From Ignavibacteriota bacterium (GTDB lineage Bacteria; Bacteroidota; Ignavibacteria; UBA10030; CAVZMI01): DNA of 64,000 nt. Location: the NCBI GenBank assembly GCA_963776275.1, contig CAVZMI010000023.1, positions 192,001-256,000 on the forward strand. The letters run 5' to 3'. Below, one piece after another: positions 12,836 to 57,190 of the stretch. The notes below the pieces were generated by a model. The model made no database searches. It saw only the letters and a list, made by a program, of their open reading frames with translations, and had not been told where the DNA came from. Both the position numbers and the translations under genes were made by a program. How positions within the stretch are numbered: the stretch's first letter is position 1; each line of letters begins with the position of its first letter.

Positions 12836-12845
12836 TATTTTTCGA

Positions 12846-28527: not shown

Positions 28528-28658
28528 AAATAACGATTGCACAAACCACGCCTTTGAGCGAGCCGCTATCAAAAGAGTCATTCAATGCGGCGAGCGAAGT
28601 GGAACGAGCACTATAATCCATTTCAAAAGAGCGAGTGTCGTGGTTTGTGCTATTATGC
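28528..28658 (-). repeat. Cassette recombination site (attC-like)
   Basis: AAATAAC-GATT-GCACAAACCACG ... CGTGGTTTGTGC-T-ATTATGC. Confidence 0.8.
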
Positions 28659-28692: not shown

Positions 28693-29085
28693 TCATGGAT
28701 TAGAGCTCAACTTGGCCGTGATGTTCGCCTCAAGAAACATCTTCGCATAGGTGTCATTGTAAAAAGTGATCCGTACGTTGTACGAACCGATGGGACGAAT
28801 CTTTACAGGCACACCGACTCGGGCATGGCTGCTGTTTTTGGACGGCCACACGATATGTCGATAGTACTGGGAGACGATTATCGGCAATAAGAATGTCGTT
28901 GCGAGCATCCAGAATCCGATAAATAACAGTGTGCTGAATTCAGCGGTCTTTGCCGAGTTTCGAAATACCATAATTATTAGTACCAACACAAGAATAACAG
29001 CAGCCATCGCAATAGCTGCCTGAAGAAATCCCGTCTTGCTGTCATGTGCTCTACAAGTCGAACATAGTGGAGCTTTAGTCGTCAC
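28693..29085 (-). CDS. Hypothetical two-TM protein (cassette; 5' end possibly damaged)
   Basis: CxxC followed by two TM helices, located between sites. Confidence 0.5.
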   Translation of the reverse strand: MTTKAPLCSTCRAHDSKTGFLQAAIAMAAVILVLVLIIMVFRNSAKTAEFSTLLFIGFWMLATTFLLPIIVSQYYRHIVWPSKNSSHARVGVPVKIRPIGSYNVRITFYNDTYAKMFLEANITAKLSSNP

Positions 29086-29224: not shown

Positions 29225-29270
29225 CGAACAGGCGGCGGAGCGTCTACGCTCTGTTGTGCGAAGTTCCGAG
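29225..29270 (-). repeat. Remnant right half of a cassette site
   Basis: T-GTTGTGCGAAGTTCCGAG pairs with the cassette start TTCGGAATTTCGCCCAAC at 29921-29938. Confidence 0.6.
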
Positions 29271-29326
29271 TCCTGCCCGAGATAGACTTTTAATTACTGG
29301 GGCTATTACAGATAAATTCATTACAA

Positions 29327-29899
29327 TCATTCTGCTAAAGGAATTTCATTAATAATTGTTTTAAGAATATTTGCTTTGCTTTTCATATCGCTCTGTTTGA
29401 TCTTGTCAGTTTTAATTATTTTTGTCGCTTTTTCTATTGAGTTCGCTAATGCCGTTAAATCATGAAAAATTGCTGCTTTACAGAAAAAGCTTCTCGATCT
29501 TCCATCATCAAATTTACCTATCATTGTTTCAAGTAATTTGATGCGTTTTTTCTGTTGCTCTATAAATTTTTTGATTCCATGTTCTTTTATAAAATACAAA
29601 TTCGGCAAAACTTTTTTACATGATGGGTACGAAGAAGACTCCTTTACTTGCTTATATTCTTCAGCACTTTTAAATTTTGCACAAGGGAAATCTGAACATT
29701 CTGAACAAACTTCAAGATTTTTTTTCTTGACGCAACAGGTTATGAAGGAACATGATGGACGTTTATTGAAGAAATTAGGGCCACCACATCCAGGACATCT
29801 TGAAGTCCCTACAGTATAGTATCTAGGGCATAGACCACAATCAAGGCCACATACACCAATTGTTGGGTATTTTTTCAAAATAGAGCTTGATTTTCCCAT
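29327..29899 (-). CDS. DUF3795-type Cys-rich protein (cassette)
   Basis: CGLDCGLCP, CPGC, CSFITCC, CSECSDFPC, FDDGRSRSFFC. Confidence 0.8.
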   Translation of the reverse strand: MGKSSSILKKYPTIGVCGLDCGLCPRYYTVGTSRCPGCGGPNFFNKRPSCSFITCCVKKKNLEVCSECSDFPCAKFKSAEEYKQVKESSSYPSCKKVLPNLYFIKEHGIKKFIEQQKKRIKLLETMIGKFDDGRSRSFFCKAAIFHDLTALANSIEKATKIIKTDKIKQSDMKSKANILKTIINEIPLAE

Positions 29900-29931
29900 G
29901 ATTATACCTCCTTTAATCCGTTCGGAATTTC

Positions 29932-30184
29932 GCCCAACGTCTAGGCAAACCGCCGTCCTACCCCGATACTATAATAATCAATTCATCTGTGTCGGGGTAG
30001 GGTGGAGCGAGCACTTTACATTTCGCCAACCTTTGTTTTCTCATCGCCTATCCAGTGTGCGCCTGCTCGCCTCGCTCTGCCGAGTATCTCGAGGCGGAGC
30101 GGGTCCGCCATGCTTTATCTTTTGGCGGAAGCGTTTACCCGCCATGTTTCATCTTCTGGCGGGCCGGTTTGCCGTTTGTTAGGC
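29932..30184 (-). repeat. Cassette recombination site, expanded by extra hairpins
   Basis: GCCCAAC-GTCT-AGGCAAACCG ... CGGTTTGCC-GTT-T-GTTAGGC. Confidence 0.75.
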
Positions 30185-30253
30185 GCAGGCAAAGTTCAAT
30201 ATCGATCGCGTTTTGCGGCACAATCGGATGGTGCCTAGTGGTTTGTCGAAACC

Positions 30254-30712
30254 TCAGCTGCCGATGGTAAGCGCGGTTGCTGGTTTCCACCTCCATGCAT
30301 ACCAGACGATTAGCGAAGTACACACAATCTCGATAGTTGCAAAGAATATGTAATAGAGAGCTGGCCTCGTTCCTCCAACAAACGCCGACAACATAACAGC
30401 CGCAGTGTGTAATACACCTATGACAATGTTTGTCCAGCGATTTGCTCTGTACTCCAATACGCGGGAGAGGAGAACCATGGCAATCGCAGTCTCTATGAGT
30501 ATTGCGGATCCCAACAAGAATCCTTGAGTGATATGAAGAGACCCTACATACCCTGTCATTATTTCCTTTAGTGTCGTAGGATCAATTAATGAATGGATAT
30601 CCGCATAAGCATAATTGAACAGTGCAAATATCCATAGTGTTGAGAGTCTTACCTTCATTTCATTCATTTCGTTGGCCTTTCGTGTTGATGAATCTGCAGA
30701 GTGGTTTGTCAT
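30254..30712 (-). CDS. Membrane protein, DUF6326-like (cassette)
   Basis: LSTLWIF.LFNYAYADI...MVLLSRVL..RANRWTNI...YIFFATIE. Confidence 0.75.
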   Translation of the reverse strand: MTNHSADSSTRKANEMNEMKVRLSTLWIFALFNYAYADIHSLIDPTTLKEIMTGYVGSLHITQGFLLGSAILIETAIAMVLLSRVLEYRANRWTNIVIGVLHTAAVMLSAFVGGTRPALYYIFFATIEIVCTSLIVWYAWRWKPATALTIGS

Positions 30713-30830
30713 GTGAATACCTTCAAGGGATTCGGTATAGGGCCACCAGACTATTGCTTATATGGTCTCCACATGACCTAGCCGCAATAGATGTGCCGCA
30801 AAACGCCTTAAGGAATGAATCTTTGCTTGC

Positions 30831-30933
30831 GCATAACGTCCGCAACAAAAATGCCGTCCCGTTTGCCGCTATGATCGACCAATTCCGTTTGCGGCAAACG
30901 GGATGGTTCATTTTACATTTTTGTTGCTGATAT
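30831..30933 (-). repeat. Cassette recombination site split by IS110 (continues at 32567)
   Basis: GCATAAC-GTCC-GCAACAAAAATG ... CATTTTTGTTGC-T-G|ATAT. The remainder ATATGCGGCG follows the IS. Confidence 0.8.
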
Positions 30934-32570
30934 TTTCTAAAAGGTGCCCCTAAGAGTCAAGAGAAATGAGTATTATATAAGCGCAAACAAACACAACACT
31001 CATTCACTTGAGCCAAAGGCTCATCAGCCTACGGCTGAGACTCAAAGGAGGCCATATGTATTACACCGGAGTTGATCTTCATCGCCGTCTCATCGTTCTG
31101 TGCACAGTTGATGAGAGTGGAACAATAGTAGCGCGAGCTCGTATGCGAACAGAACCTGAAAAGATTATTGGCTATTTCTCTCAATGGGCCGCTCCGCAAA
31201 AGGCTGTTGTTGAATGTACAGGGAGTTGGTATTGGTTCTGTGATCTACTCCGCACAAACGGAATTAAAATTCTACTGGCTCACGCAAAATACCTCAAAGC
31301 TATATCATATGCAAAAGTGAAAACCGATGCAGTCGATGCGCAAACGTTGGCACAGTTATTACGCATGGGGTATATTCCCGAAGCTCACCAGCTTTCACCC
31401 GAATATCGTTCTATGCGTGATCTTCTCAGACAACGAATGGTGATGGAACATAAACGGACGAACATGATACAACGCATCGCAAGCATCCTGGCTCAGTTCA
31501 ACATCACCAGCTATCCCGTTGCCCCGTATCAATCTGGATTTGCTGATTTTCTTAACGAATGCCCCATACCGGCAGAATATCGAATGACACTATTGATGTA
31601 CCACCAGCAATGTCTCCAGGCAACCGAACACAGAAAACAGTTAGAAAAATACTTTAAAACGAAACTACGCCCCACACCGGTTGTTCAGCTCCTGATGTCC
31701 ATCCCCGGCATCGGAGATATCACCGGTTCAATCATTGCAATGGAAACAGGGGATATCAATCGCTTTGCTGATGCCAAGCATTATTGCTCGTACTGTCGAC
31801 TCGTACCCGGAGCAAAAGACTCAGGTGGTAAACATAGCCATCGTTCGGGCTCAAAAGATGGCAACCAGTATCTCAAGTATGCCTTCACCGAAGCTGCCAT
31901 CTCCGCCTGAGGCGGATGCGCCTCTGGCGCAAAAGCGATGATGTATTATCCCGAGATCAAGCACTTCGCGACTCAACTGGAACGACGATCTACAAAAAGA
32001 ATCGCACGAACGGTTGTTGCCAAAGAACTGGCGAAGATCACATATCACGTTCTACATCGAAAACAAGAATTTATAACATTTAAGGGCATAGAGATCGACA
32101 AATTACGTGACTGGCCTTCCCGACCCTGTCGGGAGAAGCCCGTGCGCATAACAGGAGAAGAGGTATATTCTCCTCACGCTTGATTGGGATCCGGGAGTGT
32201 CGCCGATGAAATATCCGGGATGTGTTGTTGATCCGTGTTGAAGCCAAAGCCCGTTAAACCTGTCCTGAGCTTGCCGAAGGAGTGTTTGGGACGCCGGTCC
32301 TTGATCGTGTCTGATCCCTTACCCAGGGATATTTGCTCGGCGCTATGTCAATACTCAGACCTCTGTTGTCAATGAACAATATCAATCGTTGTTCTCACAA
32401 CGATATAGGAATACTTTTTTCTCTTGTGAAGTTCCGACGTACTTTGTCGGAACGACATCCCGCCGTTCTCGTCTATCCTGAGCGAGTCCCGCCTTATGCG
32501 GGACGAGTCGAAGGATGGCGGGGACTTTGCTTGCCCCGCGTTCTTTGCGGGGCCTTTTATAAAGTAATAT
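30930..32570 (+). mobile_element. IS110-family element (IS1111-like)
   Basis: ATAT at both junctions, subterminal imperfect IRs (TTTCTAAAAGG / CCTTTTATAAA), and a non-coding region of about 380 bp downstream of the transposase. Confidence 0.82.
31056..32183 (+). pseudogene. IS110-family DEDD transposase interrupted by a 30-bp in-frame insertion carrying TGA
   Basis: GVDLH, VVEC, KTDAVDA, SIPGIG, SGGK, GNQYLK. AAGGAGG RBS. ORFs 31008-31910 and 31938-32183 are in the same frame. Confidence 0.88.
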
Positions 32571-32674
32571 GCGGCGTGCCCTGACCAGTATTCTCAAATG
32601 AGCGAGTGCAGACCCAGCCCACGGGCGGTGCAGACATGAGGTCGAAGAAAGCTGGTCGCTCGAGTAATCAAAGA

Positions 32675-33322
32675 TCACGGTTCCAGTTCAAAGCGCTCGA
32701 TGCAGACGCTGTCTCCTTTCATGAGATTCTTCGGATTTGTCACCTTGATCTTTGGGTTGAAGGCCTTGGCTATCGCATCTGAGGGAGCACACTCAATGGC
32801 GTATCCAATGTCCGCAGCGTTCATCTCTCGATACAGCTTGGCGATGAGGCATTCGGTGTACTTTGCCTCGTAAGCCCGGTCGGACTTCTCAACCACTTCG
32901 TATGTGACGGCCTTGTCATAAGGTGGCGTAGCCAAATAGCCCTGGATGAGATCACCAAGCGCTTTCGGATCTCTCGAAGTGTAGCTTTTGGCCATAGAGG
33001 AGATAGCTTCGGCCATGTTGTCATCCGAAGCCTTTTTTAGGAGTTCAAGGAATTTCTTGCTGCCGAGTTTCTTTTGGAGATTCTGGAACAGCGGAACACA
33101 GTATCCATAGGTAAAGCGAAACACCTCCTCGGTGGTCATGCCCGAGTTATCCGAGTATTTCGGTTTTTGGAGCGATGCTTGCTGACCGGCAAGAGCCAAT
33201 GTAGCGCCAAACATACTGTGACAACCGAGGCAGAGGAGCGCGCCAGCCGGGAAGTCTCTTGACAAGAACTTTCTCCGGCTCGATTGGAGAGACTGATTCT
33301 TGGTTGACATGATAACCTCCAA
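32675..33322 (-). CDS. L-2-amino-thiazoline-4-carboxylate hydrolase-like protein with Tat signal (cassette)
   Basis: SRRKFL twin-arginine motif and TEC..AK.YREM.AADIGY...C..D...LMKGD..C. Confidence 0.75.
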   Translation of the reverse strand: MEVIMSTKNQSLQSSRRKFLSRDFPAGALLCLGCHSMFGATLALAGQQASLQKPKYSDNSGMTTEEVFRFTYGYCVPLFQNLQKKLGSKKFLELLKKASDDNMAEAISSMAKSYTSRDPKALGDLIQGYLATPPYDKAVTYEVVEKSDRAYEAKYTECLIAKLYREMNAADIGYAIECAPSDAIAKAFNPKIKVTNPKNLMKGDSVCIERFELEP

Positions 33323-33418
33323 AGTTGTGATGAAGTTGATGATGTCTCCGAGGTGTCACCTCACCGCCCGTGCGATAGGTGACGAGCTTTTTCAAAATCT
33401 ATGATGGTGGGGCATGCC

Positions 33419-33565
33419 GCATAATGTCCGCAGTAGCAACGCAGTGTCGCCGCGAACTCTGAACAATTCATTTCTCTGTGAGCGGCGGCATTGAGTGATC
33501 CCGACGACCTGTACGCCATTTCTTTAGCGGGAGTCGGGAGAGCGTCGTTGCTGCCGTTATTAGCC
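33419..33565 (-). repeat. Cassette recombination site with variant cores
   Basis: GCATAAT-GTCC-GCAGTAGCAACG ... CGTTGCTGCCGT-T-ATTAGCC. Confidence 0.72.
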
Positions 33566-33598
33566 GCCGGCTTTCGTCCCTCCACCGTTGGCTGACAA

Positions 33599-34270
33599 TT
33601 ACTTTTTAAAACTCGTTTTCAGCGCTCCGGTCGGACAGCTCTCAACGCAACGCTGACAGAGGATGCAATCGCCTTTGCCAATGCGTGTGCCCATTCTCAC
33701 ACGCTCAGCCACGGGAATGTCCATCGGACAGACTTCCGTGCACGCCTCGCATTCGTTGCACGCCTCGGCCTGGGCGGAGACATGGAGAAGCGCCGGGCGG
33801 CTCGTCCAACGCAGAATGAATCCGGTGGGACAAAGGTATTTGCAGAACGCGCGTTGGTCGTGCAGAGCCAGTGCCAGCGCAATAGCTGCCGCATAGTAAA
33901 CGGCAACGCCGGCAGCGACGGGCCAGATGCTGTTGCCGCGCATGTGTCCGTGGGCTCCGCCGGGCTGGGAGTCTAACACCAGCGCGAACAGAACTGCGGC
34001 CGCAAAACTGACGGCCACACCGACAAGCGGCGTCCAAACCCAAACACCCTTGCGCCGGCCCGAGCCCTTGCCGACGGGAAGACGCTCGAGCACCATCGCA
34101 CGCCAACACCCCCATCCACACAGAATTCGGCCAAAGATGAGCGGCCCGATGACGGTGGTCACCATCGTGTGACCGATAGCCGGGCCTACTGTTCCCAGGA
34201 TCAGGAGCTCGAAGAAGCCATCTATGTCGAGGTTGACGGCATCGACCAATGAGAACATGAGAATTCCCAA
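33599..34270 (-). CDS. 4Fe-4S binding membrane protein (NapH/MauN-like); 5' part frameshifted or fused
   Basis: FGRILCGWGC, RAFCKYLCP and two CxxCxxCxxxCP motifs. High GC. Confidence 0.78.
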   Translation of the reverse strand: MGILMFSLVDAVNLDIDGFFELLILGTVGPAIGHTMVTTVIGPLIFGRILCGWGCWRAMVLERLPVGKGSGRRKGVWVWTPLVGVAVSFAAAVLFALVLDSQPGGAHGHMRGNSIWPVAAGVAVYYAAAIALALALHDQRAFCKYLCPTGFILRWTSRPALLHVSAQAEACNECEACTEVCPMDIPVAERVRMGTRIGKGDCILCQRCVESCPTGALKTSFKK

Positions 34271-35062
34271 TCCACCGGTGGCCAGGACGAGCCACCGCCA
34301 CCACTGTTTGCGGTCAGCGCGGGCAAAGGCGTAGCCGGCGAGAAATGGACCTTGGGAGAGCCCCGAACCGAAGAGAGCAAATTGCGAAACCCAATGTGTT
34401 TCCCCGGAACAGTACTACTGCAGCCAACGGCCAAAAGACGAGAAGGGAGATAGCGCTGACGACGAGCAACGCACGACTGACTCTACGGGGGGTCGTGCAC
34501 TCCCCGGTCACGGGATCCTCCGAGGATACGCATACATTCGGATTCTTCTTCACCTGTAGAAATTTTATAAACATATAAATATACTTTATTACAATTGTTA
34601 AAACAACGATGTCCAAAATAATAATCGAACCAATCAAAAAAGATCACACCAATGATGCCAGATAATAACTCTCCTACAAAAACAAAAGCAATCAAAAACG
34701 ATTTATGAATTTCAACGATCCAACTGAGTACTGTGTGCCCACCTTGGATTGCTGTTTTCATTATTAAAAAGATTACGAATAAGAATTCGATAAATAGTAC
34801 TATTAAAAACGATTCTTTCAGTTTTGCACATATCTTAATATGGTTGCGCCCTAACTATTGTTTATATGGTTTCCGCGTAAGACCACTGTATGTTCCATCG
34901 CAGCATTACACGCCACAGTCAGAATTTCCAAAAGCGCTAAGCCCAAACAAGTTATCGCCGCTCAGCTCACTGACAAGAGTGTTATGCGGTTTCGGCATAA
35001 CATGGCACGCCTTTCGTTCCTTCGTGCCGCAAAACGCCTTAAGAAAATGAATCTTTGCTTGC

Positions 35063-35226
35063 ACATAACGTCCGGCATGCCCACGCAGTACCGCCACGCC
35101 ATTTTGCAAATGAACAATTTCATATTTGCAGCGTGGCGGTATTGAGGGAGCACAATTTATTTTGCTTAATGAGTTTTTATTATCGTCTGACTAGTTGTGC
35201 GACCGTCGTGGGCACGCCTGTTATGC
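35063..35226 (-). repeat. Cassette recombination site
   Basis: ACATAAC-GTCC-GGCATGCCCACG ... CGTGGGCACGCC-T-GTTATGC. Confidence 0.85.
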
Positions 35227-35293
35227 GACGCGCAGCCGAACCACCAATTCGATCTCTTCGTGTAGATAGAAAAGTTGTAATTTTCTGTTGTCG

Positions 35294-35950
35294 TCACTGA
35301 GCCAGAGTATCGACCGTGACTGAAACAACTTTGCTCTTTTGGAACAGCTTAGTTTCTCGTATGGAACGACGAATTCTCTCGTCAAACCAAGTATTTTTCT
35401 CAGATATCTGAACTAGCTTGCCTTTCACGAACTGATAGCCGCATTCTGTACCACAACACGCACCAGATTGTTCCATTGTAGTCAACGTCCGTGTGGAACT
35501 ATCGGGTGTTAGTTCACTAAGTTTACTTAGCTCGTCATGGTAGAAGAATTTTTTTGTTTTCGGACTGAAAAGCCAAACATACGACCAACTCCCACCACTT
35601 CCATAATCGTATTCCAGCATCAGATCTAGATATCCATCGAAATTGAGATCCTTGGCTATGAATGCCCCTTCCCCAAAAGGATGGTATGTTTTGAAGTTTT
35701 TGAGGATTTGAAAAATTCCCGGTTTGTCTGACCGCTTGATTTCGATTCGTGATACCGAATGCACTGCCCCCGTCTCACTTGTATCTTCGTTAACGATGAA
35801 ATGCAATGTATATGGGGGTAGTGTAGAATGTATGGTAATGGTGTATTTGTAGTCGATTTCGTTGGGTTGACCACTTGTCAACCTATAGAAGCCTACCAAC
35901 AGGAACGCAATTCCAAGGATCATGAGTAATTTCAGTTTAGGAGTATTCAT
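35294..35950 (-). CDS. Secreted hypothetical protein, XAC2610-like (cassette)
   Basis: Signal peptide, DLNFDGYLDL, VWLFSP..KKF, SGACC. Confidence 0.65.
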   Translation of the reverse strand: MNTPKLKLLMILGIAFLLVGFYRLTSGQPNEIDYKYTITIHSTLPPYTLHFIVNEDTSETGAVHSVSRIEIKRSDKPGIFQILKNFKTYHPFGEGAFIAKDLNFDGYLDLMLEYDYGSGGSWSYVWLFSPKTKKFFYHDELSKLSELTPDSSTRTLTTMEQSGACCGTECGYQFVKGKLVQISEKNTWFDERIRRSIRETKLFQKSKVVSVTVDTLAQ

Positions 35951-36021
35951 TTCAATGAAAACCTTGAAGTATAGTTATACTATACATTGAAACCACCAAA
36001 CCTTTGGTGAGGCTGCGTGGC

Positions 36022-36139
36022 GCATAACGTCCGGCACAAAAATGACGTTGGGGCGCGAACTAATAATGACTAATTATTCTGTGAGCGACCCAATGTTTAT
36101 TCGGATTTCAAACTGCCAACATTTTTGTGCCTGTTAAGT
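36022..36139 (-). repeat. Cassette recombination site (of ORF-less cassette copy B)
   Basis: GCATAAC-GTCC-GGCACAAAAATG ... CATTTTTGTGCC-T-GTTAAGT. Confidence 0.87.
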
Positions 36140-36225
36140 GCACGTGACCGCGGCACTTCACTATACTTCAGGACTTCAACTCGCGCCACTTCAAAGACTG
36201 CTAACGCCGCGGGCATTGCACTTAA
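36028..36225 (-). mobile_element. 198-bp ORF-less cassette, copy B
   Basis: Identical by eye to 38401-38598. Confidence 0.85.
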
Positions 36226-36328
36226 CGTGTGCGGGCACTACGCAGTCCCGCTTGCCACTAAGAACAATTCAATTTTCTGTGGCAAGCGGGATTGAGTGTT
36301 CTTCACGTCGTAGTGCCCGCTGTTATGT
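36220..36328 (-). repeat. Cassette recombination site
   Basis: ACTTAAC-GTGT-GCGGGCACTACG ... CGTAGTGCCCGC-T-GTTATGT. Ends 12 bp from the gene stop. Confidence 0.87.
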
Positions 36329-36340
36329 GCAGTTGCCCGT

Positions 36341-37817
36341 TCATCGTAATAAAATAAGTTTCTTTGTCTCAACAAAACCACCAGCTTCGAGTCTATAATA
36401 ATACACACCGCTTACAATACCTAATGGATTCCATTCTGTTGTATAAGTACCGGCACTCAAATCTTGCGACAAAAGCTGTACGACTTCCTGTCCTAATGTG
36501 TTGTAGATTCTTAATGAGACATGTACTTCTTTGGGGAGTGAGAATCGTATCGTTGTGGTCGGGTTAAAGGGATTTGGATAATTTTGCCAAAGGTCGAATG
36601 CAGTCGGAATATCTCCTTCAGGTTTAATACCTTCCACCCCAACATTTCCGTCAACATCCGTCTTAATTAGATATATCTGTAGACTGTCCCCGAAAGACCA
36701 GGTTTCACCAGTTATTATATAGCCACCGTCAGTAGTCTGCTGAACGGAGTGACCATAACCCGACTCATAGGTTTTTGTCCACAATGTATCCCCAGAAGAA
36801 TTGGTTTTAAATAGGTAAACATCATAATCGAGGGCATCGTAGGAACTCTGTCCCGTGATGATGTATCCACCGTCTGTTGTCTGCTGTATGGAGTTACCAT
36901 AAGAGTAACGTCTACCCTCATAGGTCCCCCCATATGTCCTTGTCCAAACGGTGTCCCCATTGTCATTAGTCTTGATTAGATAGACTGCAGTTCCAGAGAA
37001 TAAGTCCATATCCCCAACAACGATGTAGCCGCCATCAGTAGTTTGCTGAACGGACCGACCCCTTGAATGTGATGAGCCCGCCCCCTCGTAGGTCACTTGT
37101 CCAAAGTGTATCCCCGATTGTATTAGTTTTTATAAGGTAAATATAATCTTTGTAGGTAGCAAAATTTCTGATATATCCCTCAACGATGTAGCCCCCATCC
37201 ATGGTCTGCTTGATTTCGTTTCCCTCATCAGTATAATAAGTGAGCGTTCCCCCGTAGGTCCTGGTTCACAGTGTGTCCCCGGAGGAATTGGTTTTTATCA
37301 GGTAAACTTTGTAAGAACCCTTAGCCCCTGCAACGATGTATCCGCCGTCTGTAGTTTGCTGGACGGAACTACCAAATTCGTCGCCCGACCCCCCATAGGT
37401 TTTTGTCCACAGTGTGTCTCCGGAGAAATTGGTTTTAATTAGGTAAACCTGTATGCCACTACCGAAAGAGCCGGTACTTCCCGCAACAATGTAACCACCA
37501 TCCGTAGTTTGCTGAACGGAGTGCCCCCCATCATCACCCGCTCCTCCGTAGGTATTTGTCCAAAGTATATCCCCATTGGCGTTGGTCTTTACGAGGCAGA
37601 CATCGTAATTTCCTGCACCGAAGGAATTGGTCCTGCCCGCTACGATGTAGCCCCCATCAGTAGTCTGCTGGACGGATTGACCGTATTCTCTTCTAGTCCC
37701 CCCGTAAGTCCTTTCCCACCGCTGTTGAGAAACCGCAGGTTCGGCTAAGGTGAGGATCAGCAGGAAGAACAGGAGGGTAGAAAAGGTGAGCAAGTGAAGT
37801 TTGAAACGTAACTTCAT
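36341..37817 (-). CDS. Beta-propeller-type repeat protein with T9SS C-terminal domain (cassette; frameshifts near 37095 and 37265)
   Basis: About 7 repeats of W..TYGG...G.SVQQT.DGGYIVAG...YLIKT, a signal peptide and QNYPNPFNPTTTI. Confidence 0.8.
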
Positions 37818-37949
37818 GGAAACCTCCTTATAATGATACTATTTGATAATGTTTCATAATCCAAGTATAGCATTTCATAGTACACCTCCACTAATTTTGC
37901 ACTCCTTTTCTTCCTATCGTCTGTAGGCAGATCTTGAAAGGGCAATTGC

Positions 37950-38097
37950 ACATAACGTCTGGGCCAACTACGCACCCCGACCGACCAACATTTTGTCAAT
38001 TGACGGGCGGGGGGAACGAACTCTATTTGTCGCGCCGAACTAGGCACCAACGTTGCCTTACCAAATGAAGTGAGTGTCGTAGTTGGCGCTGTTATGC
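37950..38097 (-). repeat. Cassette recombination site
   Basis: ACATAAC-GTCT-GGGCCAACTACG ... CGTAGTTGGCGC-T-GTTATGC. Confidence 0.85.
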
Positions 38098-38340
38098 GCT
38101 GGCGGCCGCCCCGCACCTGCGAATTATGACCTGCCTTGCTTTTTGACGCCTGTATGATCCCTTGCCACGGTGGGTATCGCACAGTCCCGCCCAAAACCTT
38201 TCGTATGACATGGGATGTTCATGCTTGGACCGCCAGTGCGCGTCAATTCCATCCCACCCGTGCCCTTGAAAAACGTGATTGCACTCTGGACAAATCCGAG
38301 GGCCGGTCTTCGGTACCATTTTTTCGCAACATCTGCACAT
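38092..38340 (-). CDS. Small Cys/His-rich protein (cassette)
   Basis: CPEC.HVF...WDGIDAHW...H and a GGAGG RBS. Its TAA stop lies in the site core, as is typical of cassettes. Confidence 0.65.
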   Translation of the reverse strand: MCRCCEKMVPKTGPRICPECNHVFQGHGWDGIDAHWRSKHEHPMSYERFWAGLCDTHRGKGSYRRQKARQVIIRRCGAAASA

Positions 38341-38394
38341 GTTATACTAACCTCCGTCTGTTTTGTCTGGTAATTATTCGGGGCGGCCGCTTGT

Positions 38395-38512
38395 GCATAA
38401 CGTCCGGCACAAAAATGACGTTGGGGCGCGAACTAATAATGACTAATTATTCTGTGAGCGACCCAATGTTTATTCGGATTTCAAACTGCCAACATTTTTG
38501 TGCCTGTTAAGT
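38395..38512 (-). repeat. Cassette recombination site (of ORF-less cassette copy A)
   Basis: Identical to 36022-36139. Confidence 0.87.
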
Positions 38513-38598
38513 GCACGTGACCGCGGCACTTCACTATACTTCAGGACTTCAACTCGCGCCACTTCAAAGACTGCTAACGCCGCGGGCATTGCACTTAA
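38401..38598 (-). mobile_element. 198-bp ORF-less cassette, copy A
   Basis: Identical by eye to 36028-36225. Confidence 0.85.
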
Positions 38599-38726
38599 CG
38601 TGTCGGCAAACACCGCCGTGCCGTTTGGCGTATATTAATGATTCAATTTTCCTCACGCCAAACGGCATGGAACGACCACCATAATCCTTCCCAATAAAGG
38701 GAGTGCCGGTGTTTGCCGTGTTAGGC
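38593..38726 (-). repeat. Cassette recombination site
   Basis: ACTTAAC-GTGT-CGGCAAACACCG ... CGGTGTTTGCCG-T-GTTAGGC. Confidence 0.87.
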
Positions 38727-38754
38727 GAAGTTGTTTTGCATTTGCGGAAAACGC

Positions 38755-39252
38755 TTAATGTTTCACAAGGGACTTACGAATGCGGTTATTGATCCCTTGC
38801 AGTGTATCTGTTTCAATTTGATGTTCCCAATAGCGAAGAACTTTCCATTTACACTTTCTCAGGATTCGAGTTTGTCGGACATCTCGCCTTCTGTTGTCGA
38901 GAATTTTTTCCTTCCACCAGAGCGTATGTGAGTTAGGAACCTTAAAATGAATGGGACAGCCGTGCCAAAAGCATCCATCAAGGAAGAGGCACACTTTATC
39001 CTTTGGAAACACAATATCCGCTTTTATCTTCAGCAGGGGCTCGGGTCTTACATTTGTACGAAATCTTAATCCAGCTTTTTTAAGGAAGATACGTAACCTT
39101 TGTTCCTGTTTGGTCTCGTGTCCTGTATTGCTTTGCATTACACGATGTACAAGGGGAGATGATGCACTAGGCGCACGAGATCGAATTGACTGTCTTGGCC
39201 GAGAGGCCTTTCTTCTATTGGTTGGTTTGGCTGTCCGTACTGACACTGTCAA
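38755..39252 (-). CDS. vsr: Very short patch repair endonuclease
   Basis: MQSN...ETKQE, ADIVF, FLDGCFWHGCP.H, N.RRD, W.VLRYWEH. Confidence 0.9.
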   Translation of the reverse strand: MTVSVRTAKPTNRRKASRPRQSIRSRAPSASSPLVHRVMQSNTGHETKQEQRLRIFLKKAGLRFRTNVRPEPLLKIKADIVFPKDKVCLFLDGCFWHGCPIHFKVPNSHTLWWKEKILDNRRRDVRQTRILRKCKWKVLRYWEHQIETDTLQGINNRIRKSLVKH

Positions 39253-40256
39253 ATTATTTTTGAGTCTGATGATCGTTTGTATTCTGCTTTTTCCTCACCG
39301 ACACTGATGTGAAAGGCATTTTCCGTCATACTAAAGCTAATTGGAGGTAATTCGTCGGGTGTCGCCTCAAGAGCCTGCTGCATCGGGGCTTTGACATATT
39401 TTTCCAAAAAGACGGTCATCACCTCACCAGCGGCTTTTTCGAGGTGCCGCCAAGCTTCATCTCCGACAAATGTAGTGCCACCAGCATCCTTGAATGCAGC
39501 AACCAATTCAGTGAGTTTCGGGTTTGGTGTTGGATCAAGAACGATGAGAACGGGTTTGTATCCACTTTGTTTGCAGTCTGTTGGAAAATCAACTTCTTCC
39601 TGCCAGCGACCTTGTCCCGATGCAGCGATGGTAACTCGAATCTTGATCTCGTATGCTAACTTATCTCGGATGCAATCAACTTGACGCCCTTTCGAGCCAT
39701 CATCGTGTCGTTTGATTGGACTTGCCTTAGCGCTAAAGGAAGCACCTCCGATTGCATTGGCGATTATTGGTTCGAAAAGGTAGCCAGTTTCTTGTCCAGC
39801 TCTATTGTCGATATCGAACAGCCACTTTCTCCATAGGAGGAACCCAGCTAGAGCTTGAGGGCTCATTTGCCCATACTGCAGGAGCGTCCGTGGACCTACT
39901 TGATCCATGGTTGGAACAGCTTGGTATTCAAGTATCCGAGCGTATTTCAGCCTGCTTTTTTGCAGGGTTGCCAAACAAGAGAAGTATGTATCAGCGTCCG
40001 GGATCAGTTTGAAAAGGCGTTCAATAAGCATGTAAAAGTCTAACTTAGTGAGTTCAAGCTTACGGGGATCGGCCTCGTCGAAGAATTCTGGAAAGCTTAT
40101 TTTAACCTCAGGAAACTTCTTAAGGATTTTCAAATCACGAACGATCGTTGCGACGAGGAAGGCACAAGCTTCATCTGAAAGGCCTGTGCCTAATTCACCG
40201 CCGCCAGCCGCCCTTGCCTTTTCAACGAGCGACTTCTGAGATTGTGTTATTGCCAT
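39249..40256 (-). CDS. Putative type II restriction endonuclease
   Basis: Overlaps both the C5-MTase and vsr. PD-(D/E)xK-like QVD...AYEIK preceded by GYLFE. Confidence 0.72.
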   Translation of the reverse strand: MAITQSQKSLVEKARAAGGGELGTGLSDEACAFLVATIVRDLKILKKFPEVKISFPEFFDEADPRKLELTKLDFYMLIERLFKLIPDADTYFSCLATLQKSRLKYARILEYQAVPTMDQVGPRTLLQYGQMSPQALAGFLLWRKWLFDIDNRAGQETGYLFEPIIANAIGGASFSAKASPIKRHDDGSKGRQVDCIRDKLAYEIKIRVTIAASGQGRWQEEVDFPTDCKQSGYKPVLIVLDPTPNPKLTELVAAFKDAGGTTFVGDEAWRHLEKAAGEVMTVFLEKYVKAPMQQALEATPDELPPISFSMTENAFHISVGEEKAEYKRSSDSKII

Positions 40257-41491
40257 AAAGCTATTTGCTCCAGTCCGATTTCTATGCGAGTAGTGGGAAA
40301 CCTACGTCTAATGCGGTATGTAATATCTTCAAGTACAGGACTCTTTCCGCTTGAGACTGTAGGAACAAAAGACAGTAATGCTCCATTCTTAAAAGACTGA
40401 ATGTTTGAAACTTTTTCAAGATCAAGTTGTAGATTGAGAGCAATTACTTCAGCAAGACGTGGTGGAACAGCATTCCCAATTTGTAGGATACATTCAGTGG
40501 TATTTCCAATAAAGATGAAGTCATCAGGGAAACTTTGAATGCGAGCACACTCGCGAAGTGTTAAGGTTCGATCATCAATAGGATGGATGAATTCTGATGT
40601 GGCACCACTCGTAATTGCCTTCGACGGTTGATCGTCTCTCAACCGTCTCAGTCCTGCGGGAGCTCCACCTCTTCGTTCTGTTGGGGTTCCGTCCATTACT
40701 CTTCTAAACGCTCTGCGTCGATAACTCTCATGCCATAACTCAGTAGGTAGGTCTTTCATCGTCTGACCTGGTTTCAGAAGGCGGACACGTTCAATGTCCT
40801 GCTCGGATAGTGGACGATAATAATGGCCATCTGGAAAACCGGGTGGCAACAGAGTAGGACGTGGTAAACCCCTAAGTGCATCGGCTAGCGTCGGACACGG
40901 AGGGAGATGCTTGAAGGCCTTTGATGCCCCAGGAGCTCCGTAAGCCGAATAAGTCGGTTCTGGGAACCGAGGAGACCATCCCAAGCCGCCAATTGCTATT
41001 ACTCGCTTGCGATGCTGAGGAACTCCGAAGTTTGCAGCGTTTATTTTTCGAAGATGGATCTGATAGCCTACGTCAACCAATGGTTCAAGTAGATCGAACA
41101 CTCTATTCCCATTATCTGCAGTTAGAAAACCCTCGACGTTCTCGAAGACAAATGCTTTTGGTTTGTGTTGGACAACTAGTTCTGAAAAAACTCTGACAAG
41201 TGTGTTTCTATGGTCATCTGAACGACGCATTCCCGCTGAGGAGAATCCCTGACAAGGTGGCCCTCCTATAATCACATCCGTGGATGGAATAATAGTTGAT
41301 TCGGTTATATTATCTGTCAGGATATGGTCTTCAAAGTTCCTTCTGTATGTCCTCGTTGCTGATTCATTGGAATCTATAGCAACAACGCAAGTAAATCCCG
41401 CCTTTTGAAAACCAAGCGAGAGCCCACCAGCACCGCAGAACAAGTCTGCGTAGGTCATATTGTTATTATGTCCTTGGTCTATTTCCAACAT
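40247..41491 (-). CDS. DNA (cytosine-5)-methyltransferase
   Basis: DLFCGAGG (I), GGPPCQGFS (IV), FENV (VI), PQHRKR (VIII), RECARIQSFPD (IX), QIGNAVPP (X). Confidence 0.95.
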   Translation of the reverse strand: MLEIDQGHNNNMTYADLFCGAGGLSLGFQKAGFTCVVAIDSNESATRTYRRNFEDHILTDNITESTIIPSTDVIIGGPPCQGFSSAGMRRSDDHRNTLVRVFSELVVQHKPKAFVFENVEGFLTADNGNRVFDLLEPLVDVGYQIHLRKINAANFGVPQHRKRVIAIGGLGWSPRFPEPTYSAYGAPGASKAFKHLPPCPTLADALRGLPRPTLLPPGFPDGHYYRPLSEQDIERVRLLKPGQTMKDLPTELWHESYRRRAFRRVMDGTPTERRGGAPAGLRRLRDDQPSKAITSGATSEFIHPIDDRTLTLRECARIQSFPDDFIFIGNTTECILQIGNAVPPRLAEVIALNLQLDLEKVSNIQSFKNGALLSFVPTVSSGKSPVLEDITYRIRRRFPTTRIEIGLEQIALWQ

Positions 41492-41568
41492 ATTGGTACT
41501 TCTTTACCCGTATTCGTTGCATGAAACATAATAAAAACTTATCAAAAGTCATAATGCAAAACAATTTC

Positions 41569-41701
41569 GCCTAACGTCTCGCCCAACAACGCAGCGCTTT
41601 TGCGAACTATAAATGGACCAATTCATTTGTGAAGCAAAAGCGTTGAGCGACAACAACTATACTCTATCAAAGATGGAGCGTCGTTGTTGGGCGTGTTATG
41701 C
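41569..41701 (-). repeat. Cassette recombination site
   Basis: GCCTAAC-GTCT-CGCCCAACAACG ... CGTTGTTGGGCG-T-GTTATGC. Confidence 0.87.
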
Positions 41702-41964
41702 GAAGCGCCCAAAGTCGCCTATTGGATACCACACGAAGCTAACGGTGTTACAAATAACGGGTGCCCCAACACAAGAATGCCGATCAAGAGTACAACATCA
41801 ATAATTTTATTACGTCCAGTTGATTTGCTGGATATACACATTTTACAAATTAATTTAGCTCCTTAGAGGTGTTAAAAATTTATTTTGTTATTATAACCCT
41901 TATTATTTTGGACAAATTATATTTGCATCTCTGCTTTGTTTATGTCATTCTTAAAAACTAAACT

Positions 41965-42390
41965 TTATGGACCTACATAACCACAACTGGAACAAATCTG
42001 TACCCCAGTAAGTCCAGCTTTTGGACCGTAGCCAGATGCACCGCAGCGCGGGCATTTTGGCCTAGAGGCAGTTACAATAGCCCAACAAGCTGGGCACACG
42101 GCCAAAAATGGTTTTCCATCTAATGTGGTATACGGTTCTGTCAATGCTGGGTGACCGATTTCGCCTTCAACTTGTCCACGATTAGAAGCGGGTACGAATG
42201 TGAATCGGCCAGTAGGTTTTCGACCACAAAAATTGCACGTATCATATTGAGGTTTAGAATTATTGTTCTTCGGATAATCTATCATATCTTCATGTTTCTT
42301 CTCTGATGCAAAGGTACCACGACCGCATCTAGGACATTTAATTAATCCATTTGGTACCTTCTCTCCACAGATGGCACATATTTTTTCCAT
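41965..42390 (-). CDS. Zinc-ribbon-rich hypothetical protein (cassette)
   Basis: Six CxxC pairs. The probable start is MEKIC at 42390. Confidence 0.6.
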   Translation of the reverse strand: MEKICAICGEKVPNGLIKCPRCGRGTFASEKKHEDMIDYPKNNNSKPQYDTCNFCGRKPTGRFTFVPASNRGQVEGEIGHPALTEPYTTLDGKPFLAVCPACWAIVTASRPKCPRCGASGYGPKAGLTGVQICSSCGYVGP

Positions 42391-42611
42391 ATGATTTATC
42401 GCCTTCTTAGTTTTTTTAGTATATACTTTGTATATATAAATATTGATTATATGGTTTCCATATAATACGCCTTCGCCATTGCCCTTCGGCATAACACGTC
42501 TCTGCTGTTTGCTCGTCAGGTTCCTTGTTTTTCCGGTTCTTGTATTAATAATAGTATAAATGGGTAACGATTCTATTGATATAGTCAGTCCTTTCTATCT
42601 TTGGGCGTTTC

Positions 42612-42728
42612 GCATAACGTACTGCGGCAACACGCCGTGCCGCCATTCCATGAAACATGAAATGACGGCGGCATGGAGCGAGCACCTTGAATATGAAACG
42701 GCGAGCGTCGTGTTGCCGCATGTTAGTT
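42612..42728 (-). repeat. Cassette recombination site (first cassette)
   Basis: GCATAAC-GTAC-TGCGGCAACACG ... CGTGTTGCCGCA-T-GTTAGTT. Confidence 0.87.
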
Positions 42729-42994
42729 GCAGGCGCCGCTTCCACTGCCCTTTTCCCAAAGGGATCAATCCGGACAGTTGGCGCGCGTTCTCCATGGTGG
42801 CAGTGCCTTGCCAGTTCTCTTGCCAATCGTGGCATACTGCAGACGCTAAGGACACGTTGAACTTTCCGAACAATTGACTGCTTCCTCGTGACTGCCGCAC
42901 GCTTGGGATGACGACCCATGCGCAATATCATAGTCTCATCGTTCATTCCACCGCGGTTCCAAATATTTCGGCCGGTCATTTTCGTGAGATTTTT

Positions 42995-43369
42995 TCAGTC
43001 GGTGCATAGATTTATTGTCGGGAGCATAAATTGTCCTACAAAGAATTTATTGTCAATCGTTACAATCGCATTGTAGTATGAGCCGATCCCAAGGAATCCG
43101 CTATTGTAGGTCACCATCAGTTCGACGCTGTGGCCGCTATAAGTTCCAGTTGCATTGATCCCTTTCCAATCAAAAACAGGGACCGATTTAGTTATTACGG
43201 TTGAATCATTGACTATTACCTTGATAGCTGGATATAGTCCCGATTTCTCAACTCTGACCTGCCAAGTCTCACTAGTTGCACACGGCGATTGATATGTTGC
43301 GAACTTCGATGAGTAGCAGCCCGCGATTAGAAAACCGAATAGTAAAAAGAACGGTAACTTTCTCTTCAT
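42995..43369 (-). CDS. Putative lipoprotein (first cassette)
   Basis: MKRKLPFFLLFGFLIAGC lipobox. Confidence 0.7.
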   Translation of the reverse strand: MKRKLPFFLLFGFLIAGCYSSKFATYQSPCATSETWQVRVEKSGLYPAIKVIVNDSTVITKSVPVFDWKGINATGTYSGHSVELMVTYNSGFLGIGSYYNAIVTIDNKFFVGQFMLPTINLCTD

Positions 43370-43616
43370 ATTCTGCCTTTTTCTGTCTGATTTACTCCGA
43401 GACCGGAACTGCGGCTAAAGATGACCTTGACTGACACCTTTGGAACAGCTTGGTCATCGGCGCCATGGTAAGCAACGGTCGCCACGGAGATACCAACTCG
43501 TCTCTTCATTGATTGCCCTTGATAAAAATCCTCCACGAATTTATCAGGTCTCATGTTAAGTGTTCCAGCATTGCCGCGCGCCAACAAGTCGCAACCACTC
43601 TTTTAATAACTTTCTG

Positions 43617-43668
43617 GCGGCGCTTGCAACTAACATTTGCAACAACGCTATATAGCGTTGTTCTCTTT
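43617..43668 (-). other. Putative primary insertion site (attI-equivalent)
   Basis: GCGGCGCTTGCAACTAA|C-ATTT-GC-AACAACGCTATATAGCGTTGTT. A lone core plus a palindrome overlapping the recombinase stop. Confidence 0.65.
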
Positions 43669-44583
43669 TTTATCTGTGTCAGGAAGATAAATCTTTCTAT
43701 CTTTTTCTTCCTTCGGTAGCTCTTCTATCATTGAGTCGAGCGGACTTTTAATCTTCCCGATCGTACGAGTACTTATATGCGTGTAAATTTCTGTCGTTTT
43801 AATACTGCCATGCCCTAATAACTCTTGAATGTACCGTATATCCGTTCCATGTTCCAATAGAGCTGTCGCAAATGAATGCCGGAGTGTATGCATAGAAACC
43901 GTCTTGCGGATACTGGCTGATTTCACTGCACGTTCAATGACTTCCTGGATGCTCCGTTCTGATAAATGTCGTCCCGGTTTTGCACCGGGAAAAAGCCATC
44001 CGACTTCAGTAATCCTATATAATTGTACATAAGCATGGAGAGCACTCAGTACCGCTCTTGAAAGAATTGTGTATCGATCCTTTTTATGCTTTCCTTCTCG
44101 TACATGAATAACCATCCTTACCACATCAAGATCTTCGGTTCGCAAACGAACAACCTCGCCCACGCGTAATCCGCTTCCATAGGCGATCATCAACATTACT
44201 TTATGTTTTAGATTATCAATTTCTCTGAATATTCTTAGAACCTCTCCCTGATTCAGTACATCAGGGAGTCTTTTCTCCTTCATCGGCCGAGGTATTGAAT
44301 CGATCTTAAAAGGCATTCCATATAAATCGACATACAGTAATCGTAGAGCGTTAAAAACCTGGTTAATGCTCGATGCCTGGAATTGACGCTCCTCGATCAA
44401 GTAAAGCAGGTACGAGTGAATATCGTCCTCTGTCACATCGCGCGGGTGCCGCGGTCGAAAATAACTCACAAAGGAATGAAGCCAGCTAATATACGATTTG
44501 ATCGTCTTCGAACTATAGTTTTTCAGGCGCATCTCGCGCCGAACTGTCTCGAAAAACCCCGGCTTACTTTGTAACTTCTCCAT
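43648..44583 (-). CDS. Integron-integrase-like tyrosine recombinase lacking the IntI-specific insertion
   Basis: N-terminal MRLKNYS.KTIKSY (SAM-like), GLRVGE (R), GKHKKDR (K), HTLRHSFAT (HxxR), LLGH, TTEIYTH (Y), KSPLD. Confidence 0.9.
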   Translation of the reverse strand: MEKLQSKPGFFETVRREMRLKNYSSKTIKSYISWLHSFVSYFRPRHPRDVTEDDIHSYLLYLIEERQFQASSINQVFNALRLLYVDLYGMPFKIDSIPRPMKEKRLPDVLNQGEVLRIFREIDNLKHKVMLMIAYGSGLRVGEVVRLRTEDLDVVRMVIHVREGKHKKDRYTILSRAVLSALHAYVQLYRITEVGWLFPGAKPGRHLSERSIQEVIERAVKSASIRKTVSMHTLRHSFATALLEHGTDIRYIQELLGHGSIKTTEIYTHISTRTIGKIKSPLDSMIEELPKEEKDRKIYLPDTDKKENNAI

Positions 44584-56570: not shown

Positions 56571-57175
56571 TATTGGAGCTAAGACCCGTAGGGTCGATAG
56601 ATTATAACCCACATCCATTCTCCGTATACTCTGTTGCCACGGATGTGGGGTTGGCCACCTCAATACATAGGAGAGCCCCCGCAGGGGGCGTAAGACCACA
56701 GATCTGTAACCTGTATTCGTTCTAATTATTAGAACTAAGACCCGTAGGGTCGATAGATCATAACCCACATCCATTCTCCGTATACTCTGTTGCCATGGAT
56801 GTGGGGTTGGCCACCTCAATACATAGCAGAGCCCCCGCAGGGGGCGTAAGACCACAGATCTGTAACCCGTATTCGTTCTAATTATTGGAGCTAAGACCCG
56901 TAGGGTCGATAGATTATAACCCACATCCATTCTCCGTATACTCTGTTGCCATGGATGTGGGGTTGGCCACCTCAATACATAGCAGAGCCCCTGCAGGGGG
57001 CGTAAGACCACAGATCTGTAACCTGTATTCGTTCTAATTATTAGAACTAAGACCCGTAGGGTCGATAGATCATAACCCACATCCATTCTCCGTATACTCT
57101 GTTGCCATGGATGTGGGGTTGGCCACCTCAATACATAGCAGAGCCCCTGCAGGGGGGCGTAAGACTACAGATCTG
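56571..57175. repeat. Four tandem 156-bp REP-containing units
   Basis: AAGACCCGTAGGGTC starts at 56581, 56737, 56893 and 57049. Confidence 0.9.
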
Positions 57176-57190
57176 GAGGATTGTAAGATT

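Follow-up and report, generated by a model that had tools for sequence, protein, structure and literature searches.

The described systems closest to the locus treated here are the integrons. The locus is a cassette array at 28.5-44.6 kb of a 64,000-nucleotide stretch of DNA from an Ignavibacteriota bacterium (the window; contig CAVZMI010000023.1, positions 192,001 to 256,000), and at its end lies a gene for a tyrosine recombinase that resembles the integron integrase IntI without its I2 domain. The I2 insert is described as the defining feature of integron integrases and as necessary for their activity (PMC9668308, PMC7790495, PMC4792948). In the view of the field, the I2 helix lets integrases recombine folded single-stranded attC sites and, in canonical integrons, reads their extrahelical bases. 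It is held to be necessary for cassette capture, with direct proof of a causal role missing (PMC7790495), and the origin of I2 and attC is presented as a chicken-and-egg problem for which an "intermediate form" is sought (PMC4792948). The R box of the canonical site is defined as 7 bp (PMC5371416, PMC7439510), and integrons are reported to be extremely rare in Firmicutes (10.1101/2022.02.28.482270).

The array shares with canonical integrons its co-oriented cassettes, mostly with a single open reading frame (ORF), its imperfect palindromes with ...TAAC and GTTA... cores, a recombinase related to VchIntIA, and an R' half beyond the presumed crossover that belongs to the next cassette. It differs from them in the missing I2 and in its layout: instead of an attI beside the 5' end of a divergent intI, an attI-like junction follows the 3' end of the gene, 14 nt past the stop codon, and gene and cassettes share one orientation with the array downstream. 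This layout has been described for the "unusual" chromosomal integrons of Treponema, where integrase and cassettes are likewise co-oriented and the array lies downstream of the gene (PMC3607928), and it recurs in two of our own loci, L161 and L164.

A further comparison is offered by the integration of CTXphi and of integrative mobile elements exploiting Xer (IMEX) by XerCD, in which a folded single strand mimics a dif core and an I2-less recombinase exchanges one strand (PMC4792948, PMC7790495). Here, too, two arms surround an imperfectly paired centre in a folded dif-like core, and the recombinase is without I2; in contrast, there are no phage genes, the recombinase is the array's own, and the arrays hold many cassettes with AAC/GTT cores. 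In the dif site a centre of about 6 nt is flanked by two arms, each of about 11 bp, and the geometry of the window's sites resembles it. The protein is also collinear with XerA (4a8e, 5hxy) of the single-recombinase XerA/dif system. Unlike dif, which occurs once per chromosome, the sites here are arrayed between cassettes: where dimer resolution uses one duplex dif per replicon, there are dozens of arrayed sites, with arms about 100 nt apart in the duplex.

Clusters of attC sites that have no integron integrase (CALINs) are found by a detection rule in which the detector requires the IntI-specific domain (PMC9668308, 10.1101/2022.02.28.482270). Such a detector would presumably report this array as a CALIN, from which it differs in the related recombinase directly at its end, here and in at least 18 homologous loci. 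In the literature searched, covering open main texts read in part, neither outer stems specific to a cassette nor a fixed wobble nor arrays beside I2-less relatives of IntI were found described.

The two ends of a cassette in this array pair with each other well past the R box, around a fixed non-Watson-Crick position and in a sequence that differs from cassette to cassette. With a probability of roughly 0.6, and judging from sequence, we take these repeats to belong to the closing stem of an attC site that folds into a dif-like form, and to make up the outer part of that stem, which differs between cassettes; the system would be an I2-less variant of the integron.

Pairing of cognate cassette ends

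The sizeable ORFs of the array all lie on the minus strand, which is the coding (top) strand; the plus strand is the bottom strand in integron terms. Between the ORFs stand 13 imperfect palindromes of about 100-240 nt each, which on the plus strand start with ...TAAC-G and finish with T-GTTA...; as in integrons, imperfect-palindrome sites with AAC...GTT cores thus separate co-oriented cassettes. One ORF-less cassette of 94 bp is present in two copies that are 99.5% identical across 213 bp, including the hairpin on the low-coordinate side. Since the duplicate carries this hairpin along, a cassette consists of its body and the hairpin at its low-coordinate end. In order from the recombinase, the features are as follows, "identity" being the last position to which the two ends of a cassette agree apart from position 11.

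43648..44583, minus strand: tyrosine recombinase, IntI-like without I2, 311 aa
43632..43662: attI-like junction; AAC core 43632-43634, 14 nt from the recombinase stop; a 22-bp palindrome overlaps the stop
42722..43634, minus strand: cassette m; arms 42722-42739 and 43617-43634; identity to 18; two small ORFs; inner hairpin 42616-42724
41695..42618, minus strand: cassette l; arms 41695-41714 and 42599-42618; identity to 20; zinc-ribbon protein; hairpin 41573-41697
38720..41575, minus strand: cassette k; arms 38720-38742 and 41553-41575; identity to 23; Dcm methylase, putative restriction enzyme and Vsr; hairpin 38597-38722
38506..38599, minus strand: ORF-less cassette, copy 2; one extra base in the left arm; hairpin 38399-38508
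38091..38401, minus strand: cassette i; arms 38091-38113 and 38379-38401; identity to 23, mismatches at 8 and 10; 82-aa ORF; hairpin 37954-38093
36322..37956, minus strand: cassette h; arms 36322-36338 and 37940-37956; identity to 17; repeat protein with a type IX secretion system (T9SS) tail, two ORFs; hairpin 36224-36324
36133..36226, minus strand: ORF-less cassette, copy 1; hairpin 36026-36135
35220..36028, minus strand: cassette f; arms 35220-35237 and 36011-36028; identity to 18, mismatch at 9; XAC2610-related protein; hairpin 35067-35222
33556..35069, minus strand: non-conforming interval; broken NapH-like gene; hairpin on its low-coordinate side 33423-33558
32566..33425, minus strand: cassette d; arms 32566-32581 and 33410-33425; identity to 16, degenerate cores AAT/ATT, insertion sequence (IS) abutting the left end; ATC-hydrolase-like protein
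30930..32565, plus strand: IS110-family element, inserted in the 3' arm of the attC hairpin of cassette d (hairpin start 30835)
30178..30837, minus strand: cassette c; arms 30178-30194 and 30821-30837; identity to 17, mismatch at 5; DUF6326 protein; hairpin 29936-30180, 242 nt
29253..29938, minus strand: cassette b; arms 29253-29269 and 29922-29938; identity to 17, mismatch at 5; DUF3795 protein with a paralogue on contig C34
28532..29100, minus strand: distal array end; attC hairpin 28532-28654; truncated cassette that has no right arm (ORF 28693-29085)

The 30-36 nt that follow a GTT were compared, in every case, with the 30-36 nt leading up to the next AAC, taken as their reverse complement. 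All nine gene-bearing pairs named in the original prediction have ends that are identical out to position 16-23 apart from position 11, which is G in the left end (plus strand) and A in its counterpart in 9/9; five of the nine have extra mismatches at positions 5, 8, 9 or 10. The left arm of the ORF-less cassette has one extra C before the G, followed by G versus A and then by 9/10 matches. The original prediction had described each cassette as carrying its own terminal inverted repeat of 18-24 bp, with G versus A at position 11 in every gene-bearing pair and a 1-nt shift in the ORF-less cassette. The cognate pairing, the state of position 11 and the shift are all as described; the length is 16-23 bp, and one left end, given as 32567, starts in register at 32566.

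This pairing belongs to the cognate ends. Counted from position 12, the identity runs of the 12 cognate pairs are 6, 6, 5, 0, 7, 0, 6, 12, 0, 12, 9 and 7, or 5-12 in the nine conforming pairs, compared with a mean of 0.58 and a maximum of 6 in 130 non-cognate pairs (run lengths 0-6 counted 89, 22, 10, 6, 0, 2 and 1 times). The single non-cognate run of 6 pairs the left end of cassette c with the paralogous right end of the interval 33556-35069. Non-cognate ends, whose comparison had been proposed as a check, do not pair as cognate ends do past position 11.

Eight window cassettes were circularised in silico and their junctions folded with DNA parameters, giving these mean energies.

Circle junction, bottom strand: −55.9 kcal/mol
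Circle junction, top strand: −50.2 kcal/mol
Array junction, bottom strand: −41.0 kcal/mol
Array junction, top strand: −38.8 kcal/mol
Non-cognate right ends joined: −42.1 kcal/mol

In the folded model a junction gains about 15 kcal/mol in stability on circularisation, compared with its form in the array, as expected from the earlier claim that the long stem can form only when a cassette's own ends meet, and the bottom-strand circle fold is more stable than the top-strand one in 8/8. The fold runs from an outer arm into the R arm, after which 3 nt bulge out on the AAC side before a 12-bp L stem; R arm, bulge and L stem also appear when sites are folded in their array form. In the fold of L069, a homologous locus from Treponemataceae, the bulge is 2 nt and likewise on the AAC side. 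The R arm is made of 10 Watson-Crick pairs (positions 1-10, GTTA..../....TAAC) and is bounded by T·G at position 11 and usually by G·T at −1, while the centre is asymmetric, its 2-3 unpaired bases standing only on the AAC-carrying strand. Beyond position 11 the stem continues for 5-12 pairs (median 7) in a sequence that varies per cassette. The canonical attC anatomy is different, with a 7-bp R box, a symmetric unpaired spacer and extrahelical bases on the R''/L'' bottom-strand arm. Four canonical sites that were folded show a roughly symmetric internal loop after an R box of 6-8 bp and extra single-base bulges mostly on the GTT-side arm, whereas the unpaired bases here lie on the AAC-side bottom-strand arm.

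The site is also asymmetric with respect to coding. Among 66 cassettes from the window's genome and related loci, collected by the seeded scan below, 55 have their longest ORF on the strand complementary to the G-left one and 3 have it on the G-left strand itself, with 8 ambiguous; the T·G and G·T wobbles are therefore on the non-coding strand and the C·A mismatches on the coding strand. What had been called a fixed G.T mismatch is indeed fixed, but it is strand-asymmetric, a T·G wobble on one strand and a C·A mismatch on the other.

The recombinase, its relatives and the control arrays

The product of the gene beside the array is a tyrosine recombinase, matched by PF00589 (E 4e-40) and PF13495 and possessing the catalytic R, HxxR, H and Y. 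Its score against the IntI profile TIGR02249, 237.7 bits, falls short of the cut-off (265), and the match is confined to profile positions 2-181 and 235-315; positions 182-234, the I2 segment, are unmatched. No TIGR02249 match in the whole genome exceeds the cut-off. On the XerA-type profile NF040815 the protein scores 219.8 bits (cut-off 220). Its closest solved relative is VchIntIA (2a3v, E 1.5e-44): residues 10-183 align with VchIntIA 5-178 and residues 205-283 with 240-318, which leaves about 40 residues without a counterpart. In an alignment, four full-length IntIs carry an insert of about 27 + 10 residues where the window protein has a gap, and the insert is likewise missing from the array-linked homologues of L069, L063, L009, L064, L057 and L012. 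The original prediction had taken the array for a canonical integron; the adjacent integrase is without the IntI-specific domain.

A quick tree with a midpoint root groups 21 I2-bearing IntIs in one clade (support 100) and splits these 21 together with 78 I2-less proteins from the genome's Xer-like genes (branch support 100). The genome's other Xer-like genes, on contigs C6 and C11, fall outside the clade that holds the recombinase and the IntIs. Within it, the I2-bearing clade is nested in I2-less diversity with weak support of 83-85, a lead only.

The same pairing is found elsewhere in the genome and in its relatives. A site profile from nine window sites, run with nhmmer against the whole genome, gave 50 matches with E values up to 10, of which 41 stay within 0.01, and located further arrays on contigs C7, C12, C18, C20, C22, C32 and C34; several consecutive matches spanned missed sites and show no pairing there. 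A seeded scan, requiring six exact matches at positions 12-17 and at least 5/7 at 4-10 with position 11 ignored, covered the genome and 80 loci encoding recombinase homologues (41-59% identity). It yielded 66 unique pairs with G/A at position 11 and 29 others, of which 27 are not cassette-like and two are integron-like exceptions (A/A in C12 53060/53986 and A/T in L069 13616/14290). Position −1, just inside the core, is G·T in 44 and T·T in 17 of the 66.

An unseeded test, with sites defined by similarity alone, found the extension in 8/8 consecutive cassettes of L069, in 6/6 of L063 (Paenibacillus) and in 2/2 of L045. In L009 one interval of three had it, the others running across sites that were split or missed; for L057 no cores could be placed. 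A pooled set of 26 attC-defined cassettes was made up of nine from the window, three from contigs C32 and C22, eight from L069 and six from L063. Positions 12-17 are Watson-Crick paired in 92-100% of their cognate ends, as against 28-43% of 164 non-cognate pairs from the same arrays, and all four pair types are present at positions 13, 15, 16 and 17. Positions 5-7 and 9 are cassette-specific too (92-100% cognate versus 46-60% non-cognate), and positions 1-4, 8 and 11 hardly vary. T·G occupies position 11 in 25 cassettes and T·T in one; position 10 is T·T in 8/26. Outer pairing reaches position 12-24 in this set. The rule, for which homologous arrays had been named as a check, holds in 26/26 attC-defined cassettes of the window and its relatives.

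Three comparisons bear indirectly on whether cassettes move as units by exchange at the core: the ORF-less cassette is duplicated with its hairpin; contig C22, which shares the recombinase gene and the first cassette with the window, has other cassettes after the core; and a copy of cassette b stands on C34.

Arrays beside I2-bearing integrases served as the control. Of 301 genomes drawn from the class to which G001 (Marinicella) belongs, 112 have full-length IntI genes, a tally that includes three unpublished genomes otherwise unused; a full-length TIGR02249 match above cut-off is present in 39 of 69 genomes from the family of G002. Fifty-six flanks were fetched; of the 36 of at least 3 kb, six held clear arrays, and others with repeats, such as L171, were left out. 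Generic stem-based and energy-based finders being too imprecise for canonical attC, self-similarity and a single-seed profile per array were used. The cognate identity of these arrays is as follows.

L128, 11 cassettes: 4-8 bp
L121, 6 cassettes: 5-12 bp
L145 (resembling Vibrio cholerae repeats; G189:C8:66200-74407), 15 cassettes: 8-12 bp, at least 10 in 14
L151, 5 cassettes: 3-9 bp
L161 (23) and L164 (7), 30 cassettes: 5-9 bp, same-orientation layout

Cognate ends pair over 3-12 bp in all 67 of these cassettes, compared with 16-23 bp and T·G at position 11 in the window, and identity at positions 12-18 is never above 3/7. At least 5/7 at these positions is reached by 26/26 I2-less and 0/67 I2-bearing cassettes (Fisher p = 1.3e-23). 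The extension, which had been proposed for comparison with canonical integrons, is thus absent from the 67 cassettes beside I2-bearing integrases. The accompanying claim that canonical cassettes need just a 7-bp R box needs correcting for some canonical arrays, such as L145; canonical chromosomal arrays can pair well past the textbook R box. In L145, positions 5-11 are cassette-specific, and the end pairing is 10-12 bp long in 14/15.

The contrast can be drawn within a single family, that of G002, to which the I2-bearing L161 and L164 and the I2-less L069 all belong. The I2-bearing arrays, in the Treponema-type layout, pair over 5-9 bp with the 12-18 extension in 0/30, whereas beside the I2-less enzyme of L069 it is present in 8/8. 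Since L161 and L164 share family and layout and are without the extension, it goes with the I2-less enzyme and not with layout or taxon. In L161 and L164, many cassettes have at one end a GC-rich hairpin of the GGACGC...GCG type, short and immediately adjoining the 8-bp R box.

The recombinase adjoins an array in at least 19 loci, the window and at least 18 homologous ones. Seeded pairs downstream of the homologue start 79-1537 bp after the end of the protein match. Three loci have pairs upstream in opposite polarity, the canonical divergent layout, and two of these are from candidate-phyla bacteria; a fourth such match is doubtful. Seventeen homologue loci end less than 300 bp past the gene, which is expected if repeats break assemblies and proves nothing. 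Many homologues are without an array, among them a well-supported subclade of 12 that has none; the protein family is mixed and array-linked in part only. Two homologues of about 42% identity (L177 and L178), from plasmids of Clostridium tagluense and Chryseobacterium oryzae, lie beside IS91-family transposase genes, with nothing between the two genes in L177. The recombinase family may thus include a branch of its own that is linked to IS91.

Other features of the array

The IS110-family element at 30930-32565, which we take to belong to the IS1111-attC group, has an interrupted transposase frame (31008-31910, then 31938-32183) that matches NF033542 at E 1e-55. Its insertion junction is just before the GTT core, and the identical junction sequence is present in another attC on contig C7, so that insertions at a fixed position inside attC sites are seen at two sites. 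The sole match in an Rfam scan, anti-hemB at 29 bits and below threshold, falls in the 3' non-coding end of this element (32466-32561); Rfam is without an attC family.

At the attI-like junction, no inner attC-type hairpin follows beyond the last cassette arm, as read from the sequence. Within 43620-43662 the R arm of the first cassette is directly repeated, GTTGTTGCAA being followed 12 nt later by GTTAGTTGCAA, and the 22-bp palindrome overlapping the recombinase stop codon is perfect. TACGCA-type motifs, repeated, occupy the corresponding attI-like place in several relatives. Contig C22 has at 9445-12954 another copy of the recombinase gene and first cassette, diverged to 94-99% identity and containing insertions of 313 bp within the 3' part of the gene and of 1146 bp in the cassette; either a paralogue or an assembled strain variant could account for it.

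Cassette k is a restriction-modification module borne as a cassette: its three genes (38755-41491) are for a cytosine methylase of the C5 type, a putative restriction enzyme with a weak resemblance to ApaLI, and the mismatch endonuclease Vsr. Two genes of the array look broken: the repeat-protein gene of cassette h (36341-37817, with the T9SS sorting tail), split into two ORFs, and the NapH-like ferredoxin gene (33599-34434), split across several frames. Elsewhere in the window, at 56600-58280, the site finder picked up repeated units of about 156-200 bp, each with a hairpin-like ...ATAAC CCACATCC ... GGATGTGGG GTTG motif, which appear unrelated to the array.

Explanations and significance

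The preferred reading starts from the observed anatomy, cognate specificity, strand asymmetry and link with I2-less recombinases, and derives from anatomy and adjacency a putative crossover point, recombination of a single strand, a function for the wobble and outer stem, and a candidate enzyme. The terminal repeats would be two halves of the base of a folded recombination site, the hairpin imitating a Xer/dif-type core. Strand exchange would occur inside the stem, at or beside AA|C, and the outer halves would for that reason sit at opposite cassette ends in the linear array. They would travel with the cassette and reunite only in the excised circle or by long-range pairing of single-stranded DNA. 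The wobbles, pairing only on the bottom strand, would make that strand the better hairpin. For an enzyme without I2, the outer stem and the fixed non-Watson-Crick position may take over part of the job of the I2 helix, by selecting the strand and by keeping the R arm of the circle stable and recognisable. Position 11 could be restored by one transition, which is seen in 1/68, and this argues for selection on the non-Watson-Crick state.

A number of observations weigh against this reading, every step of which comes from nucleotide and protein comparisons. The original prediction fixed the boundaries at AA|C; the switch between cognate and non-cognate ends, the duplicated cassette and the comparison of C22 with the window bracket the probable crossover no more finely than to the invariant T-A-A-C-G block. 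It is conserved adjacency that makes the recombinase the candidate to act on these sites, and its family is heterogeneous: downstream seeded pairs occur in 14/48 loci with at least 1.5 kb downstream and in 5/32 shorter ones, and the three plasmid homologue regions examined contain no array, the two annotated ones adjoining IS91 transposases. Two window intervals are without pairing. That at 33556-35069 looks like a chimera or fusion of two cassettes, because over its last 46 nt on the right it matches the right end of cassette c at 93% identity; in that starting at 28652 the right end is gone, and so is the 5' arm of the hairpin next to it. The outer stem of cassette b is decaying relative to its C34 paralogue. 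The canonical sample consists of six chromosomal arrays, with mobile class 1 arrays outside it. Finally, the I2-bearing L141 holds an ORF-less unit of 38 bp with a 17-bp pairing between its arms that includes G·T at position 10, and the dichotomy between I2-less and I2-bearing arrays is therefore not absolute. This unit, at 14570-14608 between two attC sites and repeated near 15691 and 16770, consists of just two 17-nt arms; nothing else in the canonical sample comes close to the rule.

The same complementarity might act in the array itself, if single-stranded cassette ends paired over about 20 bp, looped out the body and joined the crossover sites, thereby favouring excision and setting directionality. 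Such a role would profit from cognate pairing that is about 14-15 kcal/mol better than array or non-cognate pairing, from R arms that in the array context are paired at just 44-60% of positions 5-7, 9 and 10, and from the size of most analysed cassettes, 0.3-1.6 kb; yet in cassette k the pairing would have to span up to 2.9 kb in competition with local hairpins, nothing shows favoured excision, and the arrays are long and apparently stable, which makes it unlikely. We think it decidedly unlikely that the complementarity is a historical scar of the making of cassettes or sites, such as a fold-back copy of one end, without present function. Copying would yield a perfect pair at position 11, where the restoring transition is so rare, and the pairing is kept in 26/26 attC-defined cassettes from distant taxa with all four pair types. 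The cassette-specific outer sequence, its variable length (16-23 in the nine window pairs, 12-24 in the pooled 26) and its decay in cassette b are what a scar would leave.

Read-through transcripts are plausible, with the cassette ORFs and the recombinase gene on one strand, and the 5' and 3' ends of a cassette transcript could pair and regulate translation or stability. The coding strand, though, has C·A and often also A·A mismatches at the fixed positions, wobbles occur only on the non-coding strand, and the coding-strand fold is the weaker in 8/8, all of which renders a role in RNA very improbable. Inverted repeats of 16-23 bp flanking single genes, in an array that harbours an IS110-family element, could also call to mind transposon-like units, with terminal inverted repeats read by a transposase and the hairpins as spacers. 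We give this hardly any credence: the outer part differs in every cassette and would be unreadable for a transposase, the conserved part is the AAC/GTT core of attC-type hairpins, it is a tyrosine recombinase that abuts the array in at least 19 loci, and the IS sits inside one hairpin as an insertion.

A wider form of the preferred reading, which we offer tentatively as a possibility, is that these arrays represent a widespread natural lineage of I2-less integrons, found in Ignavibacteria-like bacteria, Bacteroidota, Clostridia, Paenibacillus, Spirochaetota, Anaerolineales and candidate-phyla bacteria, in which the outer stem and T·G choose the strand and mark the site. Canonical integrons might then have arisen within it, when the I2 helix and extrahelical bases replaced the outer-stem and T·G device.

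The pairing rule is a simple means to delimit cassettes in arrays of this kind. Detectors that need the IntI domain would file them as integrase-less, so that integron-like systems may be more widespread than is reported, Firmicutes being one example. Arrays of cassettes whose hairpins resemble attC, beside I2-less relatives of IntI, make the question of I2 testable with natural material, and the outer stem and fixed wobble are concrete, mutable candidates for an alternative recognition device. The extension seen here in arrays next to I2-less integrases may point to a way of recombining cassettes without an I2 domain. If true, the I2-less lineage would explain the apparent near-absence of integrons from Firmicutes and would supply the "intermediate form" that has been sought (PMC4792948).

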